From contig CBDBGZ010000005.1 in assembly GCA_965205425.1 (NCBI GenBank), forward strand, positions 168,670-232,669: a stretch of DNA of 64,000 nucleotides, written 5' to 3'. Shown in pieces: positions 36,598 through 61,742 of this stretch (positions are counted from its first letter, which is position 1; every line of letters starts with the position of its first letter). The notes beneath the pieces were generated by a model. The model saw only the letters and a list, made by a program, of their open reading frames with translations, had not been told where the DNA came from and did no database searches. The position numbers and the translations under genes were made by a program. The stretch is from Nitrosopumilus sp. Lineage in GTDB: Archaea > Thermoproteota > Nitrososphaeria > Nitrososphaerales > Nitrosopumilaceae.

Positions 36598-38466
36598 TTA
36601 CACCATCAGTTTTGGTCTCTTTGAGAGATGCTTTGGTAAATTCAAACCAGAGAAAGGTTTTCCTTTAGTCTGCTCATTAAACTCAGATATAAAATCATCA
36701 AAAGATAATTCTCTCACATCACCTGTTTGTCTATCACGAATACTAAGATTTTGTGAATTTGCTTCTTTTTCACCAATAACTAGAATATATCGAATCCATT
36801 CTTTTTCAGCTTCACGAATTCTTTTGCCAATGCTTTCATTTTGGTCATCAATGTCAACACGAATGTTATTTGCAGAGATTTTATCACAAAGAGTCTCAGT
36901 AAAGTCATTAAATTCTTCCTTAAGAGGAATAATTCTAACTTGTGATGGAGCTAACCAAAGAGGGAATTGAGGTTTACGCCCCTCATAGGAATCTTTTGCA
37001 GCTTTTTCCAATAATGCATAAATTATTCTCTCAATTGCACCACTAGGAGAATTATGTAAAATTATTGGATGTTGTTTTGTGTTATTTTCATCAACAAAAT
37101 CAATTCCATAACGATCTCCATTTTCAACATCTATTTGATCAGTTGATAATGCTGATGCTTTTCCAAGACCATCAACAAAATTAAATTCCCATTTTAAAAC
37201 AAAATAAAAGAATTTTTCCATCCACATTTCAACTAAAACTGGACGTCCATGTTTCTTGACTAATTCTTCAACAGAGGATTTATTTTCATTGTAAAAATCT
37301 TCAGTAAATCTAATTGCCATATCATAATCAGAATCATTGATTCCAAGTTCTCTAAGAACACTTTGAGATAAATCAAAACGAATCTTAATTTCGTCAATTG
37401 CTTGTGGCATATCTTTGCAAAAAGCGTGACAATCAGGCATGGTAAATGCCCTTAGACGTCTTAAACCGACTAATTCACCAGATTGTTCTCTTCTAAAACT
37501 ATAACGGGTTAGTTCATAGAGTTTGTAGGGTAAATTCTTGTACGATAACTGATATTGATTTGCCATTAAAAATTGGCCAAAACAAGCAGCAAATCTCAAA
37601 AAGAGCTTTTTTCCTTCTGAATCAATATTGTATTGTCTTGCAGGAAATCGATTAAAGTAACTAACCATACTAGGATGTTCAGAGTCATACATAATTGGAG
37701 TTTCAACTTCATATCCCCCATATTCTTTTACTCTGTCAGAAACATAACGTTCAATCAAAGATTTTATCAAACGACCATTTGGATAGAATCTCATATTACC
37801 TGAATCAGATGCAGGTTCATAATCAGAGATGCCCATTTTTTTCATCAATGCAACATGAGGTGGAGGTTGGTCCACTTTACGAATTTTTGCAGATTCATAT
37901 TTTGCTAAAATTTCTAATTTAGGATAATTTGAAAAATCAAAATCACCAATGTTAGTCATTGTTCCATCAGGTGAAAGAATTTTCCAATAAGAACGAATTT
38001 TAGATTCTCCTTTGAGAGCATCAGAGGTGATCTCCTCATCAGGTTTTGAATCTGCTGAATCTTTTGTTACAACTTTAGAGCTTTCAGCAAGAGGATGTCC
38101 TTTTACTTGAATTTTATAAGATTTTGTCCAACCAAATGGAGAATGAGATACTTCAAGTTCAGATGCACCATCTTCCAGTTCTTTGAGCAATGTCATTGCA
38201 GTTGAAGGCTTTGCAAGATTTGAGCTAAGATGAGCATAAGGATATAGCAATAATTTTTTACATCCAATTTTTTCCATGGATGCTTTAATTTGAGAAATTG
38301 CATTTTGTGCCACTGAAGAATCATCACCATCTTCAATTGCAACAAATACAACTACAAGTTCTTCCAATAGAACCGTTTCAGGATTTTCAATATCCTCAGC
38401 AGATTTAATCTCCTTTTTGGTAGGAGTGTATTCTATATGATCACAGTGTAGTTGCAATATACGCAT
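36598..38466 (-). CDS. thrS: Threonyl-tRNA synthetase (archaeal editing domain)
   Basis: MRILQLHCD start, YPYAHLS, LRFAACFG, FRREQSGE, HNSPSGAIER. Confidence 0.96.
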   Translation of the reverse strand: MRILQLHCDHIEYTPTKKEIKSAEDIENPETVLLEELVVVFVAIEDGDDSSVAQNAISQIKASMEKIGCKKLLLYPYAHLSSNLAKPSTAMTLLKELEDGASELEVSHSPFGWTKSYKIQVKGHPLAESSKVVTKDSADSKPDEEITSDALKGESKIRSYWKILSPDGTMTNIGDFDFSNYPKLEILAKYESAKIRKVDQPPPHVALMKKMGISDYEPASDSGNMRFYPNGRLIKSLIERYVSDRVKEYGGYEVETPIMYDSEHPSMVSYFNRFPARQYNIDSEGKKLFLRFAACFGQFLMANQYQLSYKNLPYKLYELTRYSFRREQSGELVGLRRLRAFTMPDCHAFCKDMPQAIDEIKIRFDLSQSVLRELGINDSDYDMAIRFTEDFYNENKSSVEELVKKHGRPVLVEMWMEKFFYFVLKWEFNFVDGLGKASALSTDQIDVENGDRYGIDFVDENNTKQHPIILHNSPSGAIERIIYALLEKAAKDSYEGRKPQFPLWLAPSQVRIIPLKEEFNDFTETLCDKISANNIRVDIDDQNESIGKRIREAEKEWIRYILVIGEKEANSQNLSIRDRQTGDVRELSFDDFISEFNEQTKGKPFSGLNLPKHLSKRPKLMV

Positions 38467-38587
38467 GTTTAGAGATGTTAAATTGGGCATAAATATACGA
38501 TTCTCAAAAATAGAAAAATTCCTCAAATTATTGATAAATGAGAAGAATTTAGGTTGAAATTCAGTCTTAATCATCAAATGAAATTAT

Positions 38588-38788
38588 CCATGTGAATTGT
38601 TTTTATACATTTCCTCTCTTTCCATACATCAGGGCATGGCTTTCGCTAGAGAATGGTTTCAATCAAAAGATGGCAGACATGTATCCATACGAGACTATTC
38701 TCTCAATGCTATCTTCATCCTAGTTAGGATTATTCGCAGTTATCAGACGAGGCCTTGTCCCTCAAGCATTTTAACGCGACTTGCAGTC
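38588..38788 (-). ncRNA. Candidate IS110 bridge/seek RNA (non-coding region downstream of the recombinase)
   Basis: ~200-nt non-coding tract inside the element with stems and short matches to donor and target arms. Confidence 0.55.
38600..38614 (-). promoter_or_regulatory. BRE/TATA-like box at the IS110 right end (candidate circle-junction promoter)
   Basis: GGAAATG-TATAAAAA on the minus strand, 12 nt from the core. Confidence 0.45.
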
Positions 38789-39880
38789 CTAACTATAATT
38801 TTGCACAAATTCTCTCCTCTCCTTTAGCATCCAATAAATTACTCGCAGAATCTTTGATGCGCCAGCAACTGCATCTTTGGATGAACCTCTCTTCTTTTTA
38901 ATGCGATTATAAAATTTGGTAATGTCGCTGTTCTTGGTATGTATTGCATGGGTGTGTATGCATTCTGTTAGAACCCATCTCAATGTCATGCTTCCTCTCT
39001 TTGTAATTCTTCCATGATGTATTGTATCTGCAGAATTTCTCACCGATGGAACAATCCCTGCATATGCACATAACTTGCGAGAATTTGAAAATCTACTAAT
39101 CTCTGCAATTTCTGAGAATATGCTCAATGCAGTGTATGGTCCAACTCCAGGTATTGATGTCAAAATACACACATCAGGATTATCATTTACCATGCGACGT
39201 ATCATGGAATCTATTTTTGCAACCTCCTTTTTGTGAAATTTTATGCTTTGTAGGTACGAATCTATTCTATAACTCTCCAATTTTCCAAGTGCACGTATGT
39301 GTTCTGAGGAAAATGGTGTTGCTTTGATATGGATTCCCTCCTGTAGTGTAATACCATGTATGGAATTCTTCATCTTTACAATAATGCGCACAATCTTGTG
39401 TCGATGTCTTACAAGCTGTCTGTATTGCACAATTGTGTGATCTGGCACAAATGATTCTGCAATGTATCCTCCTCGTAGCAAATTTGCAAGATGGTACGCA
39501 TCAATTTTATCAGTCTTTTTGAGTGATGATGCTATTATCTTTGTGTTGTATGGATTAGATAGTATAACATCAAGATGTAATTTGTCTGTCATGTGTCTAT
39601 AAAGGCCATACCAGACAGATGATGACTCTAAAACATATTTTGCGTTCTTTGGAATTTTGGATGTAATTTTGCTAATAGCAGAAAAATCACTGGAAATCTT
39701 TTTGTTAAATAATAATTTGCCAATCTCATCTACTGCTGCCACCTGTACAGAGTTCTTGTGAACATCCAATCCTACAAACATCAAATATTTTTTTTCAGGA
39801 AGGGTAGTGTGTTTGTTTGCATTTCTTACTTTCTTGATACGAATGCAAGTACCATCTAATTTCCTAGCTGATTTTGGCAC
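38789..39880 (-). CDS. IS110 DEDD recombinase
   Basis: VGLDVHK, VLESS, KTDKIDA, SIPGVG, YAGIVPSVRNSA. Confidence 0.95.
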   Translation of the reverse strand: MPKSARKLDGTCIRIKKVRNANKHTTLPEKKYLMFVGLDVHKNSVQVAAVDEIGKLLFNKKISSDFSAISKITSKIPKNAKYVLESSSVWYGLYRHMTDKLHLDVILSNPYNTKIIASSLKKTDKIDAYHLANLLRGGYIAESFVPDHTIVQYRQLVRHRHKIVRIIVKMKNSIHGITLQEGIHIKATPFSSEHIRALGKLESYRIDSYLQSIKFHKKEVAKIDSMIRRMVNDNPDVCILTSIPGVGPYTALSIFSEIAEISRFSNSRKLCAYAGIVPSVRNSADTIHHGRITKRGSMTLRWVLTECIHTHAIHTKNSDITKFYNRIKKKRGSSKDAVAGASKILRVIYWMLKERREFVQNYS

Positions 39881-40083
39881 ATATGGTTATAGTTATTACA
39901 AAATAACAATTCATTATATTCTGATCAAGAAAAATCTCTATATCTTACAAATTCACATCCAAAGTAAAATTTTGGGCCACAGATAAAATTGGTAATCAAT
40001 GTCGAATTGCGTTAGGCGATTACCAAAATCCAGCTATTCCATGGCAATATTGATGCTTTGATTATTCTTTTAAAATAAAAAAA

Positions 40084-41494
40084 GTAACTGTCTAGAGTTT
40101 TGAAGTACTTTCTTTAATATTTTTTATCTATATCTTTTCTGATCAGTGACAAATTACAATATACAATTGTCAGTATATGATGAGCTGGAATATTATCGTA
40201 ACAGATGTCACTCGTTGGAGCAAGAAAACCGTCAGTTACGCAAAGATATTGAATCACTACACAGAGAAATTGCAGAACTAAAACAAACAGTGTCTACACT
40301 TGTTGCAAGAAATATCAAAGCAAAACCAAACCAGACTGAAACTGCAAAAAAGAAGAAAACATCAAGACATCCTAGAAAAAGCAGAAGCAGACGGGCACAC
40401 ATTGATGATGCCATTACAGTTGACCAAAAAGAGTGCAACACATGTGGCAAATCACTCTCAGAACCAACTGATTCATACACCAGAATAGTAGAAGACATCA
40501 TTCCTGCAAAAGCAGTTGTGACAAAATATACGATAGTTAGACGATACTGCACAAACTGCAAAAAACAAATCTCGGGTAACATTCACACTGTACTGTCAAA
40601 TGAAAGGTTTGGAATTAGGCTCATGGTGCTAATCACATCACTAAAAACTATCGGATTATCGTATGGTAAAATATCTCATCTTTTGCAGATGCTCTTCTCA
40701 CTGCACATTACAGAATCTGCAATTAATCATGCAGTATCAATAGTATCAAAAGCATTTGGGAGCAGATATGATACAATGATTGTAGAGTTAAAAGAAGATC
40801 TAAACATACATGGTGATGAGACAAGTTGGAGGATAGATGGCCAGAACCACTGGTTGTGGGCATTTGTGAGTAAATGGACTGTAATTTACGAGATTGACAA
40901 ATCACGTTCAATGGATGTTCCCAAGAGAATTCTCAAGGAGTATAATGGCAACATTACAAGTGATTCGTACCCTGCATGGAACCATGTTGGAACAACTCAC
41001 CAGAAATGTCACATCCATTATCTCAGAGAGGTTAATGATACCATTAATCACAAGAATCCCGGACCAGAATTTGCACCATTTGCCAAGAATCTCAAGAAAA
41101 TAATTTATGACTCTCATGGTGTGGCAAAAATAAAATCAGAATCAGAAAGAATCCATGCAAAAAAGAATCTTGAAAGGAGAATTAATCACATCATATCAAA
41201 AAAATACACAGAGAAAAACTGTATCAGGTTTGTAAAAAGATTGAAACGTGAGAGAAAAATGCTTTTTACATTCCTAATTACTGGAACTGATTCACACAAT
41301 AACACAGCAGAGAGGGCAATCAGACCAAATGTGATAATTCGTAAAATTACAAACGGTCATAGAACCATTCATGGTGCCGATTCTCATAAGATACTGATGA
41401 GTATAAAGGAGACATGCAGATTACGAGGATTAAACTTTCATGATTATTCTTTAGAATATCTTGGAGATTTTACTTCAAAACTCTAGACAGTTAC
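40084..41494 (+). mobile_element. IS66-family IS, TnpC-only (ISBst12-like)
   Basis: Perfect 24-bp IR GTAACTGTCTAGAGTTTTGAAGTA; 8-bp TSD TAAAAAAA. Confidence 0.93.
40146..41486 (+). CDS. IS66 transposase TnpC
   Basis: Coiled coil, CxxC pairs, HGDETSW, QKCHIHYLR, NNTAERAIR. Confidence 0.92.
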   Translation: MTNYNIQLSVYDELEYYRNRCHSLEQENRQLRKDIESLHREIAELKQTVSTLVARNIKAKPNQTETAKKKKTSRHPRKSRSRRAHIDDAITVDQKECNTCGKSLSEPTDSYTRIVEDIIPAKAVVTKYTIVRRYCTNCKKQISGNIHTVLSNERFGIRLMVLITSLKTIGLSYGKISHLLQMLFSLHITESAINHAVSIVSKAFGSRYDTMIVELKEDLNIHGDETSWRIDGQNHWLWAFVSKWTVIYEIDKSRSMDVPKRILKEYNGNITSDSYPAWNHVGTTHQKCHIHYLREVNDTINHKNPGPEFAPFAKNLKKIIYDSHGVAKIKSESERIHAKKNLERRINHIISKKYTEKNCIRFVKRLKRERKMLFTFLITGTDSHNNTAERAIRPNVIIRKITNGHRTIHGADSHKILMSIKETCRLRGLNFHDYSLEYLGDFTSKL

Positions 41495-41603
41495 TAAAAA
41501 AAGTGTTTTAAAATTGATTCAAGTAATTTAAAAAAAACCCATTGAGCCTATCACTGGTAATTCAATGGAAAGTTTTAGGTAGTATCCTATTTCTGATATA
41601 TCA

Positions 41604-58074: not shown

Positions 58075-58253
58075 ATGAATTTGAACCAAAAATTCCAAAA
58101 TAAATTACATTGTATTTGTAACGAAGATGTAGTTTTTGAAATTATTGAGGATATAGAATGTGATTGGGGAACTCATCTTGTAATTCAATGTCCAAAATGT
58201 GAAGAATTGTTTTCTGCTGATTGTGAATGTCCTGCTTTTGGAAATATTCTAAA
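58075..58253 (+). pseudogene. Cys-rich protein gene truncated by IS110
   Basis: HCIC...QCPKC...CPAF then runs into IS110 sequence at 58254. Confidence 0.65.
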
Positions 58254-58381
58254 TTATCCATGTGAATTGTTTTTATACATTTCCTCTCTTTCCATACATC
58301 AGGGCATGGCTTTCGCTAGAGAATGGTTTCAATCAAAAGATGGCAGACATGTATCCATACGAGACTATTCTCTCAATGCTA

Positions 58382-59527
58382 TAGTTAAGGCATTAAATAT
58401 TTGAATAATTTCACAACTCGAACGTCTCCATTATCTAATCTCTTCTGCATGTGTTTTCTCATCTCAGTTCCATTTACAAAGAATGTATTGGCATTACCAT
58501 TTTTCTCTTCTCTCCACTGTACCTCAATTGGATTGAGTTCTGGGGTGTATGCAGGAAAATATCTTATGATTACATTTCTTTTTGATACCTTGAGAAATTC
58601 TTTTACTCTAACACTTTTGTGGTATGATGCATTGTCTGCAAATAATAACAGTTTCTTGCCAAATTGTTTCTGCAAGGATTTTAAGAAATCAAGAAATGAG
58701 TCTGTGTTTGATTTATCATAGAACCTACAAAAAAATACGCCGTCATCCCCCAATGCACCAAATGATTGAAATTTTTCTCGAGTGTAATTAATTGGTGTGG
58801 TAATGTTATTGCCTGCAAGATACCATCCGCGCTTTATGTTAGGTGCTATCTTGTTTGTTGACTCATCCAGACATAGTGTGATATGTCCCAATTTGGAATA
58901 TTTTTTGATACTCCTTTTTGCGTTTTTTTAAAACGGGTTTGTTCCTCTTTTGAGGCTGATTTGTGATGTGTGGGACGTGGTTTTTTTGATGAGAATCCAA
59001 TTCTGTGCAGCAATTCACGCATTCCTCTTGCAGAGTATAGGGTGTTGTATTTTTTATTCACATGTGTAATTACCATTCTTGTACTCCACATGAATTGGTT
59101 AAATCCAAACTTTTCTGGACCTGAAATTAGATCATTTCTTAATGATACTAGCTGTTTTTCATTTAGAAAACATCTAGAACCAGAATATTTCTTGCGGTGT
59201 GATGCAGATATTCCCTCTTCATCCATTCGATTTAGCCAGTAGGACAGAGTTGATGGTATGACATCCAGACTTGCACATATCACAGAATACGGAATATTTT
59301 GTTTTCTTAGTATTGCAGCCTTTAATCTTATCTTTGCTTTTGCATTTTTTTCATTCTTGCATACTTTTCTTAAAAAATTAATGCTTGTACCTTTCATGAA
59401 TTGATTTCCAGAGGAAACCTTGGATTGTCTTGTACTCTTTGACATGGTTTCATGAATTGATTCTACGATCTAGATCTTTTGAGTTAAAATACTTGACAGT
59501 TTATTCAAAATTTATATGCCTAAACTA
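58382..59527 (-). mobile_element. IS630-family IS type B, copy 2 (inside the IS110 non-coding region)
   Basis: 1146 bp, TA duplication at GC-TA-TC; ORFs 58846-59445 and 58385-58891. Confidence 0.92.
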
Positions 59528-59606
59528 TATCTTCATCCTAGTTAGGATTATTCGCAGTTATCAGACGAGGCCTTGTCCCTCAAGCATTTTAACGCGACTT
59601 GCAGTC

Positions 59607-60698
59607 CTAACTATAATTTTGCACAAATTCTCTCCTCTCCTTTAGCATCCAATAAATTACTCGCAGAATCTTTGATGCGCCAGCAACTGCATCTTTGGAT
59701 GAACCTCTCTTCTTTTTAATGCGATTATAAAATTTGGTAATGTCGCTGTTCTTGGTATGTATTGCATGGGTGTGTATGCATTCTGTTAGAACCCATCTCA
59801 ATGTCATGCTTCCTCTCTTTGTAATTCTTCCATGATGTATTGTATCTGCAGAATTTCTCACCGATGGAACAATCCCTGCATATGCACATAACTTGCGAGA
59901 ATTTGAAAATCTACTAATCTCTGCAATTTCTGAGAATATGCTCAATGCAGTGTATGGTCCAACTCCAGGTATTGATGTCAAAATACACACATCAGGATTA
60001 TCATTTACCATGCGACGTATCATGGAATCTATTTTTGCAACCTCCTTTTTGTGAAATTTTATGCTTTGTAGGTACGAATCTATTCTATAACTCTCCAATT
60101 TTCCAAGTGCACGTATGTGTTCTGAGGAAAATGGTGTTGCTTTGATATGGATTCCCTCCTGTAGTGTAATACCATGTATGGAATTCTTCATCTTTACAAT
60201 AATGCGCACAATCTTGTGTCGATGTCTTACAAGCTGTCTGTATTGCACAATTGTGTGATCTGGCACAAATGATTCTGCAATGTATCCTCCTCGTAGCAAA
60301 TTTGCAAGATGGTACGCATCAATTTTATCAGTCTTTTTGAGTGATGATGCTATTATCTTTGTGTTGTATGGATTAGATAGTATAACATCAAGATGTAATT
60401 TGTCTGTCATGTGTCTATAAAGGCCATACCAGACAGATGATGACTCTAAAACATATTTTGCGTTCTTTGGAATTTTGGATGTAATTTTGCTAATAGCAGA
60501 AAAATCACTGGAAATCTTTTTGTTAAATAATAATTTGCCAATCTCATCTACTGCTGCCACCTGTACAGAGTTCTTGTGAACATCCAATCCTACAAACATC
60601 AAATATTTTTTTTCAGGAAGGGTAGTGTGTTTGTTTGCATTTCTTACTTTCTTGATACGAATGCAAGTACCATCTAATTTCCTAGCTGATTTTGGCAC
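59607..60698 (-). CDS. IS110 DEDD recombinase, copy 2
   Basis: Protein identical to 38789-39880. Confidence 0.95.
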   Translation of the reverse strand: MPKSARKLDGTCIRIKKVRNANKHTTLPEKKYLMFVGLDVHKNSVQVAAVDEIGKLLFNKKISSDFSAISKITSKIPKNAKYVLESSSVWYGLYRHMTDKLHLDVILSNPYNTKIIASSLKKTDKIDAYHLANLLRGGYIAESFVPDHTIVQYRQLVRHRHKIVRIIVKMKNSIHGITLQEGIHIKATPFSSEHIRALGKLESYRIDSYLQSIKFHKKEVAKIDSMIRRMVNDNPDVCILTSIPGVGPYTALSIFSEIAEISRFSNSRKLCAYAGIVPSVRNSADTIHHGRITKRGSMTLRWVLTECIHTHAIHTKNSDITKFYNRIKKKRGSSKDAVAGASKILRVIYWMLKERREFVQNYS

Positions 60699-60710
60699 AT
60701 ATGGTTATAG

Positions 60711-61674
60711 GGCCTTGTAGAAACCATCTGATTTTAACCCAATTGTGATACATTTTAGCTAATTTAGATCCATTAGGATTGTATTTGCAGATTACAGTAT
60801 GGTCTCATCATACGTCAAAATGTGCAAAACACTACTCAATATAATCACCAGATGCAGAATTCCCAGGTTCTTACATCCAAAATCAAATCATATCTATTCT
60901 GTTTGGACACATCTCATACTCTTGGCAATACGACAGTACGAATCAAAGAGTTATAGAAGATTTACAGAATTTTTAGAAGAATGTGTAGGAATTCAGGAAT
61001 ATCTTGGTTTGTCTACCATTCCACATTACACCACACTACAAAAGGCAGCTGCAAGACTGGAAGGAAATCTGTTACATAAAATGTTGCAGGAATTCATTTT
61101 GTACAAAAAAGTCAGACTGGTTCTAGCTGGAATTGATGGTAGCGGATTCAGTTACAGTACAGCATCATACTATTATACAAAAAGAGTACAGTTACGCAGG
61201 AATTTCCTAAAAGTTGTTGTTTGTGCTGACATGAATACACAGCTTGTTTGCTGTGTCATGACACACCACAACATGATAATCCTGATTTTCTGCCATTGTT
61301 GTACAAAACCAACAATATTGTTCCAGTTGATATTGTGTTAGGTGACATGGGTTTTGATGATGAGAATAACCATGTTGGTGCAGAACAGATCAACACAGCT
61401 GCAATAATTCCAACTCGATATGGAACAGTTCCAATTTACAGAACCAGTGGAATTCATAGAAAGGAGATGAAGAGGAACTTTCCTGTACAATTGTACCATC
61501 AGAGAAACAAATCTGAAACAATCTTTTTTGTGATCAAACAGATAATGTCAGGAGATGTCACATCAAGAAATGTTACAACTCAGGACAATGAGATGTTGTA
61601 CAGGTTAATTGCATACAATTCCTACAGGATTAGAAAATTAGATTTTGTTATTTTATCATGGTTTCTACAAGGCC
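60711..61674 (+). mobile_element. IS5-family IS, copy 2 (964 bp), frameshifted transposase
   Basis: IR GGCCTTGTAGAAACCAT; 8-bp TSD GGTTATAG; one CAACATG unit missing relative to copy 1. Confidence 0.92.
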
Positions 61675-61742
61675 GGTTATAGTTATTATTGTTGATTTCT
61701 TTAGGAGAATAAAATCTCAATACTATTTGGAAGATGTCAGGT

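Follow-up and report, generated by a model that had tools for sequence, protein, structure and literature searches.

A predicted bridge/seek RNA downstream of an IS1111-type recombinase gene in Nitrosopumilus

Introduction

RNA-guided recombinases of IS110/IS1111 insertion sequences (ISs) are under development as programmable genome-writing tools, and to our knowledge all that have been characterized are bacterial. Here we analyze an IS110-family element of IS1111 type in a 64,000-nt stretch of DNA from the archaeon Nitrosopumilus sp. (contig CBDBGZ010000005.1, positions 168,670 to 232,669; hereafter the window, in whose numbering all positions are given). Copy 1 of this element combines an intact DEDD recombinase gene with a 202-nt 3′ tail, and comparison with related tails makes it highly probable that the tail encodes an IS1111-type bridge/seek RNA, the expression and activity of which are predicted only.

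For the IS1111 elements ISEc11, ISPa11, ISKpn4 and ISPst6, Siddiquee et al. (2024, PMC11187229) describe seekRNAs in which the complement of the top strand lies 5′ of the match to the bottom strand; the same account states that IS1111 elements of bacteria and archaea use seekRNA. The Nitrosopumilus element resembles the elements of that account in its DEDD recombinase with PF02371, its long downstream non-coding region, its subterminal inverted repeats (imperfect in the window copy), the order of its guides (top-strand complement first, the two guides meeting at the insertion point) and the natural reprogramming among its relatives. We file it provisionally with the IS1111 type because strand order and downstream region are as described there. 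A first-pass annotation of this DNA, made from the letters alone, had likewise called a downstream RNA position typical of the IS1111 group, and the 202 nt indeed lie downstream. Unlike the described seekRNA elements, this one has an archaeal host and an RNA that is predicted, at ~122 nt, rather than measured, at 82-96 nt. It also departs from IS1111 elements in its serine motif (SA rather than SG or TG, the expected motif being GL-P----S(T)G), in a subterminal repeat that spans only ~5-7 bp in the window copy (7-17 bp being usual), and in a common crossover that is apparently a single T (often TA).

The IS621 bridge RNA, as presented by Durrant et al. (2024, PMC11208160), similarly contains two internal loops, target first and donor second, each reading the two halves of its DNA on opposite strands, with a fixed donor and a programmable target. 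In contrast to that system, the RNA here lies behind the gene, at the right end rather than in the left. Its loops carry their guide strands in the opposite order, the right half being read on the top strand by the 5′ side; T(A) takes the place of CT as the core, and the right-target guide is long (7-9 nt), the left one short. The same report predicts bridge RNAs in 93% of ISfinder IS1111 elements. ISPpu9 of Pseudomonas putida, in the description of PMC12288879, is also an IS110-family element with a small RNA gene (Ssr9) behind its transposase and a highly repeated short genomic target (a repetitive extragenic palindromic, or REP, sequence), just as one sister family here targets a motif present 142 times in its genome. 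ISPpu9 is bacterial.

A preprint (10.1101/2024.06.21.599552) counts 662 archaeal IS110 recombinases, and a 2026 survey (PMC13343696) names a Nitrosopumilus genome as the most IS-rich archaeal genome. Our literature search found no detailed description of a bridge/seek RNA from an archaeal element; supplementary tables, which lay outside the search, may list such elements. The mechanism itself is not new: NCBI already labels this protein family RNA-guided, and the seekRNA authors, in the account cited above, already include archaeal IS1111 elements.

Results

Element, gene and copies

38587..39894, minus strand: copy 1 of the IS110-family (IS1111-type) element, 1308 bp, delimited by self-comparison and the junctions of six full-length copies, with boundaries refined by sister-family empty sites
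38789..39880, minus strand: recombinase open reading frame (ORF), 363 aa from GTG, with M33 as an alternative, shorter start

The recombinase carries the Pfam domains PF01548 (E 1e-21) and PF02371 (E 9.7e-23); from its motifs we take D39, E85, D124 and D127 to be the DEDD residues. It scores 226 bits against NCBIfam NF033542, "IS110 family RNA-guided transposase", and thus passes the curated cut-off of 140, a result that concerns the protein family only and is silent on the RNA. The C-terminal half matches the solved IS621 (E 4e-8; structures 8wt6-8wt9) and ISCro4 (E 1e-8) recombinases, with S283 aligned to the serine of ...ESG... in ISCro4; the serine motif reads GIVPSVRNSA. Non-coding DNA comprises the 202 nt downstream of the gene (38587-38788), close to the ~200 nt that the first-pass annotation had placed between the recombinase stop and the element end, and either 14 nt upstream of the GTG or ~110 nt upstream of M33.

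The assembly (9 contigs, 99.55% complete) holds six full-length copies of type A, 95-100% identical, plus several fragments. By self-comparison the window contains two copies that are 100% identical (38581-39892; 58251-58382 joined to 59528-60710). The sister lineages are A2, with a 95% identical gene and a different tail; B, at 54% amino-acid identity; and C, whose gene is hybrid and frameshifted and whose tail is A-like.

A conserved two-stem-loop fold

38673..38794, minus strand: predicted bridge/seek RNA core, ~122 nt, two stem-loops; covariance model R1, 122.9 bits (this sequence is in the seed)
38723..38793, minus strand: stem-loop 1, target-binding (predicted); helices P1 (38788-38793/38723-38728) and P2 (38775-38779/38734-38738), hairpin P3 (38749-38763)
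38675..38720, minus strand: stem-loop 2, donor-binding (predicted); helix P4 (38716-38720/38675-38679), hairpin P5 (38690-38705)
38637..38648, minus strand: tentative third hairpin UAGC-GAAA-GCCA with a GNRA-type loop; 85% paired, two pairs changed on both sides, slid controls 4-44%

The first-pass annotation had proposed as checks a fold and covariance model built from relatives, and covariation of loop positions with target and donor bases. Behind the recombinase gene, the conserved motif GGATGAAGA is found in 49 of 64 related loci. We aligned 25 representative tails, from which RNAalifold returned two stem-loops, and fixed a five-helix model on a 134-column part of the alignment. Over its 25 pairs (625 cells), 95.7% are paired, compared with 33-47% after a shift of the 3′ partners by 1-3 columns. 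Changes on both sides of a pair occur in 8 pairs and 34 cells (shuffle mean 11; 0/500 shuffles reach the observed value), and the covariation score of the fold is 0.257 versus 0.186 in shuffles (0/500). Specifically, three pairs are changed on both sides in P1, which extends over the final recombinase codon and its TAG stop, one in P2 (pair 17-66: CG 11, UA 8, UG 5) and three in P5, which is 100% paired; P4 is 99.2% paired. The covariance model R1 built on this fold yielded 71 matches at E <= 1e-3 in 84 loci. In an even sample of 151 genomes from the order, it matched 8, which represent three families (Nitrosopumilaceae and two more).

The stems noted in the first-pass annotation, AGAGAAT/ATTCTCT and ATCCT/AGGAT (the latter at 38717-38730), are present as inverted repeats. 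As a structure, however, they are weaker, with 81.4% pairing over the 25 relatives, and they compete with P1, P4 and P5 of the covariation-supported model. The long-range AGAGAAT/ATTCTCT pairing (76.6% paired, some changes on both sides) excludes P5 and was retained only as a weaker alternative; it may represent an alternative conformation.

Loop 1 follows the target

38764..38774, minus strand: right-target guide UUAAAAUGCUU, 5′ side of the inner loop; its counterparts in relatives can pair with top-strand DNA immediately to the right of the element
38739..38748, minus strand: left-target guide GUCUGAU + AAC, 3′ side of the inner loop; same sense as the left DNA plus the common T

Among 13 close RNAs, 8 of 11 and 4 of 8 columns vary in the two target-guide strands, as against 0/12 and 0/12 in the donor-guide strands. 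The AAC of the left-target guide is invariant and equals the first 3 nt of the left end of the element. Guides were scored by their longest exact match to 12 nt of flank and permuted among guide types (10000 permutations). On the right side, the mean longest match was 5.76 nt compared with 3.52 nt (standard deviation 0.22) in permutations (0/10000; 21 guide types, 41 distinct flanks), and on the left side 3.85 nt compared with 2.83 nt (standard deviation 0.20; 0/10000; 14 guide types, 45 flanks). The proposed covariation with target bases is thus found on both sides.

Right guides and the flanks that they match include AUGAAUCAU with ATGATTCAT, in 10 of the 12 scorable copies of a family inserted at TTGCT(T)GATTCATAC, UUAUAUG with ACATATAA, AUGAUUG with ACAATCAT, GCAGUAUAU with ATATACTGCG and AAAUUGC with GCAATTT. 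On the left, GGUUGAU-AAC corresponds to GGTTGAT|AAC, ACGCAU-AA to ACGCAT|AA and CUUGCU-AA to TTTGCT|AA. Ten further matches from other families of the order, unused in model building, served as an out-of-sample set: the guide complement ATCCCAAAA of locus L135 fits its flank at 9/9 positions, L134 fits over 8 nt and L141 over 7 nt, and the left guide GAGCCU-AAC of L133 corresponds to GAGCCT|AAC. Among the A copies themselves, C9:39k fits its own guide over 8 nt (AAUUACAA) and C9:1144k over 6 nt (AACTCT).

The positions that track the target in relatives are therefore those of the inner loop, 38764-38774 and 38739-38748. AATAAT (38729-38734), which the first-pass annotation had matched to the target, falls in the outer internal loop of stem-loop 1 and does not follow the flanks, and we discard it as a guide.

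Loop 2 follows the element ends

38706..38715, minus strand: right-donor guide AAGAUAGCAU, on the 5′ strand of loop 2; its AUAG complements the CTAT in the left end AACTAT
38680..38689, minus strand: left-donor guide UAUGGAUACA, 3′ side of loop 2; contains ATGGATA (38682-38688)

On the 5′ side of loop 2, AUAG occurs with an outermost AACTAT in 29 of 29 matches for which the left end was found, and AUGG with an innermost AACCAT in 24 of 24. On the 3′ side, AU(G/A)GAU corresponds to the right end CACAT(G/A)GA: right ends reading CACATAGA go with AUAGAU and those reading CACATGGA with AUGGAU in 59 of 61 matches with a right end found; the other two come from copies in which the end is mutated or a guide base has been lost. 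A third donor variant, CACATGGG, goes with AUGGGU in 4 of 5 distant matches. ATGGATA itself spells out the circle junction, running from ATGGA of the right end through the common T to the A that opens the left end; the first-pass annotation had noted its match to the left arm of the donor junction, and these counts bear that assignment out. The donor agreement reflects in part the inheritance of whole tail modules, and at least two independent switches, not 59, can be argued for.

Bases of the loop 2 3′ strand that follow the common T tend to equal the first right-target bases (2.84 of 4 compared with 2.23 permuted, 0/10000). They resemble a guide that would read the recombined product, an observation that we treat as a lead only.

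Junctions and the crossover core

39878..39894, minus strand: left end AACTATAACCATATGTG; its AACTAT tip is that of the sister C type, followed by AACCATATGTG, a left end of A2 type
38587..38596, minus strand: right end with subterminal inverted repeat TTCACATGGA; left-end partner CCATATGTG

In gene orientation, copy 1 reads flank-T|AACTATAACCATATGTG ... TTCACATGGA|T-flank, with one T (window positions 39895 and 38586) common to both junctions, and A copies read flank-T|AACTATAACCATATGTGCC ... AATTCACATGGA|T-flank. The subterminal repeat, CCATATGTG versus CACATGG, is imperfect, consisting of 5 bp (ATGTG) plus CCAT with a 2-nt gap; that of sister C-type elements is 8 bp (ATGTGAAT/ATTCACAT). The right end of copy 1 reads CACATGGA|T|A and is matched by ATGGATA. 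The predicted circle junction is cacATGGATAActat, i.e. ...CACATGGA-T-AACTAT..., or in extended form CACATGGA-T-AACTATAACC; the first-pass annotation had arrived at the same junction.

The target of copy 1 is TGTAA-T-AATTTCA and includes the TAATAATTT proposed earlier. Three of the four junction flanks in the window agree, not all four as had been claimed, because copy 2, two bases short at its left end, runs into unrelated sequence there (caaggcc|CTATAACC, without the AAT|AA of copy 1); copy 2 matches copy 1 only in its right flank (T-AATTTAG).

Empty sites of two sister families bear on the core. The B family is inserted at ...GG-T-ATGTGTTTAGGTC in the end of a repeated element, six uninterrupted copies of which read gtaTGTGTTTAGGtcacgcc. 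In another genome, a family of at least 13 copies is inserted in TTGCT(T)GATTCATAC, which occurs 142 times there and 0 times in the reversed control. Both families show AAC(C/T)AT...CACAT(A/G)GA with a single T common to target and element, the next base being mostly A. We had initially read a 4-nt core, ATAA/TTAT, as had the first-pass annotation; these empty sites led us to replace it by the common T(A), and the crossover core is thus predicted to be T or TA.

For copy 1 itself, no empty site was recovered among 30 relatives, in which the thrS upstream region could be aligned only to ~59 nt from the element, the left flank not being found beside it. Contigs of four DNA sequencing runs contained only other insertion sites and one variant tail, with no circle junction and no empty site; since contigs drop rare forms, this absence carries no weight for or against a circle. 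The A copy C9:39k sits in a diverged IS66-like copy, of which five intact paralogues (...GTGACAAATTACAA) fit its guide over 9 nt; the targeted copy differs from the paralogues at several nearby bases, and the exact crossover cannot be read there.

Several side observations concern these ends and targets. The B-type target is the repeated end gtaTGTGTTTAGGTCACGCCTAGATTAAACCGAATAATTTAGA of another mobile element, with at least six occurrences (G000 contig C4: 208446, 225773, 258259; window genome C2:54608). The TTGCT(T)GATTCATAC motif, in the genome of locus L054 (G001, e.g. C1:79949-79962), is preceded by GGCATAAAACATGTTATTTGCT, which is also conserved; this REP-like or regulatory repeat serves as the landing site of one IS family. 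Separately, a nearly invariant AAAUGU(A/U)U(A/U)AAAA motif (alignment columns ~201-213), TATAAAAA in the window copy (38600-38607, minus strand), lies ~13-20 nt inside the right end and resembles an outward-reading archaeal TATA box. In the circle it would stand upstream of the left end and the GTG start (39880); in the chromosome it points to thrS, ~115 bp away. This box might act as a circle-junction promoter, an archaeal counterpart of the bacterial IS110/IS1111 junction promoter.

The guide of the window copy and its own site

Read in the register of its nearest relative, L049 (AAAUUGC at T|GCAATTT), the right guide UUAAAAUGCUU of the window copy predicts ...CTGA-T-GCATTTT, whereas the actual flank is T|AATTTCA. 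All three copies with the loop AAAAUGCUU (copy 1, copy 2 and C9:86.7k) sit at T|AATTT(C/A), which the guide does not explain. We tried every register and the left side as well, and rejected the fits obtained, which were only 4-5 nt, AT-rich and out of register. The genome contains sites that do fit this guide, 3 exact CTGATGCATTTT and 15 TGATGCATTTT, all of them unoccupied, and no copy with a GAAAUU-type loop, which would suit the actual flank, was found in the 9-contig assembly.

A copy in another species, L027, occupies the same site as C9:86.7k, the right flanks being 91% identical over 400 nt, and carries GAAAUUUAU, a near fit to that flank (6 nt). Identity between the two elements is 94.7%, C9:86.7k being closest to the window copy (97.7%) and L027 to C9:39k (97.3%). 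At L027, ~145 nt left of the element, the orthologous flank in the other species is separated from the left end by a repeat of ~145-150 nt, of which G000 has at least seven copies. This repeat ends in GGTCTAAT, which equals the left guide GUCUAAU of the L027 copy.

Copy 2 and the surroundings of the element

58257..60710, minus strand: copy 2, 100% identical to copy 1, interrupted; left end without the first two bases (AA)
58383..59527, minus strand: IS630-like element nested in copy 2, two overlapping ORFs; insertion point at the TA of its right-donor guide AUAG (equivalent to 38710-38711)

The element nested in copy 2 is 1145 bp long, with DDE_3 (E 1.7e-23) and HTH_33 (E 1.9e-15) domains, a duplicated TA and ORFs that overlap as if joined by frameshifting; from its domains and TA duplication it is presumably an IS630 member. 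Because it splits the right-donor guide AUAG, copy 2 would be unable to make an intact RNA, and R1 indeed finds that RNA in two parts, 59492-59612 (71.4 bits) and 58343-58410 (29.4 bits). The recombinase ORF of copy 2 is intact, and the identical RNA of copy 1 could serve it. On contig C2, an IS630-like element of this type in turn serves as target for a B-type IS110 element. The truncated left end of copy 2 lies ~45 bp from the start of a further IS (60757-61700; weak DDE_Tnp_1 match, broken ORF pair), and an IS end of the same type abuts the right end of the A copy C9:483k, which may explain both aberrant junctions.

The gene neighbouring copy 1 encodes threonyl-tRNA synthetase (thrS) with an archaea-specific editing domain, and recombinase relatives in public genomes come almost entirely from Nitrosopumilus, Nitrosopumilaceae or Cenarchaeum assemblies. 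On these two grounds the element is archaeal; together with PF01548 and PF02371 they bear out the earlier description of an archaeal IS110 element. Within the gene, the A and B recombinases have part of the 32 codons before M33 (39785-39880, minus strand) in common (R-LDGT); these codons overlap conserved left-end DNA, GAAATTAGATGGT, such that an N-terminal extension and a DNA or RNA signal are both possible. Approximately 190 bp from the left end of copy 1 lies a compact IS66-family element (40083-41495) with a 446-aa ORF (zf-IS66 and DDE_Tnp_IS66), bounded by a perfect 25-bp inverted repeat (40083-40107 and 41471-41495); the genome holds five more intact copies and a diverged sixth.

Discussion

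The first-pass annotation had proposed an archaeal RNA-guided recombinase system. The conserved fold with its compensatory changes, the covariation of loop 1 with the flanks and of loop 2 with the element's own ends, and the order of the guide strands, all observed computationally, argue for that proposal. The tract would be made as an RNA, probably either by co-transcription with the 3′ end of the recombinase mRNA or by processing from it, as P1 overlaps the last codon and the stop codon. This RNA would fold into two stem-loops, each with an internal loop. In loop 1, the 5′ strand would pair with the top strand to the right of the target site and the 3′ strand with the bottom strand to the left, and loop 2 would, in the same arrangement, read the joined ends of the element in the excised circle. 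By analogy with the family, the RNA would bind the recombinase, a circle would form and recombination would depend on the RNA, with the DEDD recombinase and RNA exchanging strands at the common T (often TA) and thereby inserting the circle at the specified site.

Several results weigh against this model. The fold of the single tail is no better than that of shuffles (z = -0.77), so that the structural evidence comes only from comparison, and the shuffle and permutation controls overstate significance, since the tails are not independent of one another and the structure was itself drawn in part from them. Changes in P4 are one-sided only. Some of the covariation is block exchange of whole tail modules, the A2 tail carrying a B-type stem-loop 2 and right end together. 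The left-guide matches are short, the three AAAAUGCUU copies sit at sites that their guide does not explain, and the T(A) core derives from a few empty sites of sister families, none of this element. An Rfam 15 scan of 38400-40100 at E <= 10 returned no matching family; its only match, to U6 inside the ORF at 17.6 bits against a gathering score of 44, was dismissed as chance. Among the public sequencing runs, no RNA run was listed with the element sequence, and the start, end and promoter of the RNA were not identified. The lack of a listed RNA run would also suit a tail that acts as cis-acting DNA or as an mRNA 3′ structure (a terminator or stability element) with recombinase-binding sites, target choice being made by protein-DNA contacts and the loop matches being incidental. 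The unremarkable single-sequence fold fits such a tail equally, as do the last ~85 nt of the tail, whose conservation goes with no clear fold and which contain the subterminal repeat, a presumed protein site. Yet compensatory changes keep the helices paired, the only hypervariable positions are the two loop strands, which change with the flanks on both strands, and the protein belongs to a family with RNA guidance established in the accounts available (NF033542; PMC11187229, PMC11208160). We therefore regard a purely cis-acting tail as very improbable.

The mismatch between the window guide and its site calls for an explanation within the RNA model. The one that we tentatively prefer, at somewhat less than even odds in our judgment, is that resident copies were overwritten after insertion, by gene conversion or homologous replacement from a sister copy of another sublineage, so that the right-target guide region of the window copy would no longer be the one that directed its insertion. 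C9:86.7k and L027 share a site in two species and are nevertheless only 94.7% identical, each closer to copies elsewhere, and tails and recombinase genes have visibly recombined, type A combining an A2-like gene (95% identity) with a C-like tail (90%). Parallel insertion of a site-specific element at the same site would, however, give the same pattern; no conversion tract was delimited, and overwriting alone leaves unexplained why all three AAAAUGCUU copies sit at similar AATTT sites. Alternatively, the RNA family is real and the window copies were mobilized in trans by a sister RNA of GAAAUU type, which placed them at T|AATTT(C/A) sites, or landed off target through tolerance of mismatches; no later change of the loop would then be needed. 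Since A-type copies do not differ in donor ends or donor guides, the RNA of any one of them could mobilize the circle of any other; L027 carries a nearly fitting GAAAUUUAU at the site of C9:86.7k, and the complete identity of copies 1 and 2 implies that they are recent. We nonetheless consider this course of events rather unlikely, because the assembly contains no copy with a GAAAUU-type loop, the 3 exact and 15 further guide-fitting sites are all unoccupied, and guide and flank agree in most other families. Overwriting thus remains our working explanation for the window copy.

The elements also appear to act on each other. Each of the 12 distinct A2-type insertions has its site within the left end of a different IS110-family element, at AAC(T/C)AT|ATGTGAATAA, and these sites match the A2 guides UUCACAUU and AAACUAU-AAC; the match of A2 guides to the left ends of sister elements accounts for tandem A2-C arrays. 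The window element resembles the product of such a nested pair, with a C-type AACTAT tip on an A2-type left end, an A2-like gene and a C-like tail, and its donor guide AUAG fits the AACTAT tip. It is possible, although we hold it with some doubt, that the elements in IS-rich Nitrosopumilus genomes form an interacting population in which A2 elements land in their sisters, nested pairs collapse to chimeras and guide loops are exchanged.

The analysis provides a concrete RNA model with coordinates for its fold, four guide segments, crossover and strand order, in a family so far confined to ammonia-oxidizing archaea. At least 21 natural right-target guides and three donor variants constitute a natural reprogramming series against which IS1111-type targeting rules, including a single-T/TA core, could be tested. 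In some Nitrosopumilus genomes, the system helps to account for part of the IS load and for the nested IS arrays. If the elements do interact in the manner suggested, these genomes would present natural, recombination-driven reprogramming and hyperparasitism among RNA-guided recombinases, in which the guide of an element would no longer record the site where it landed.

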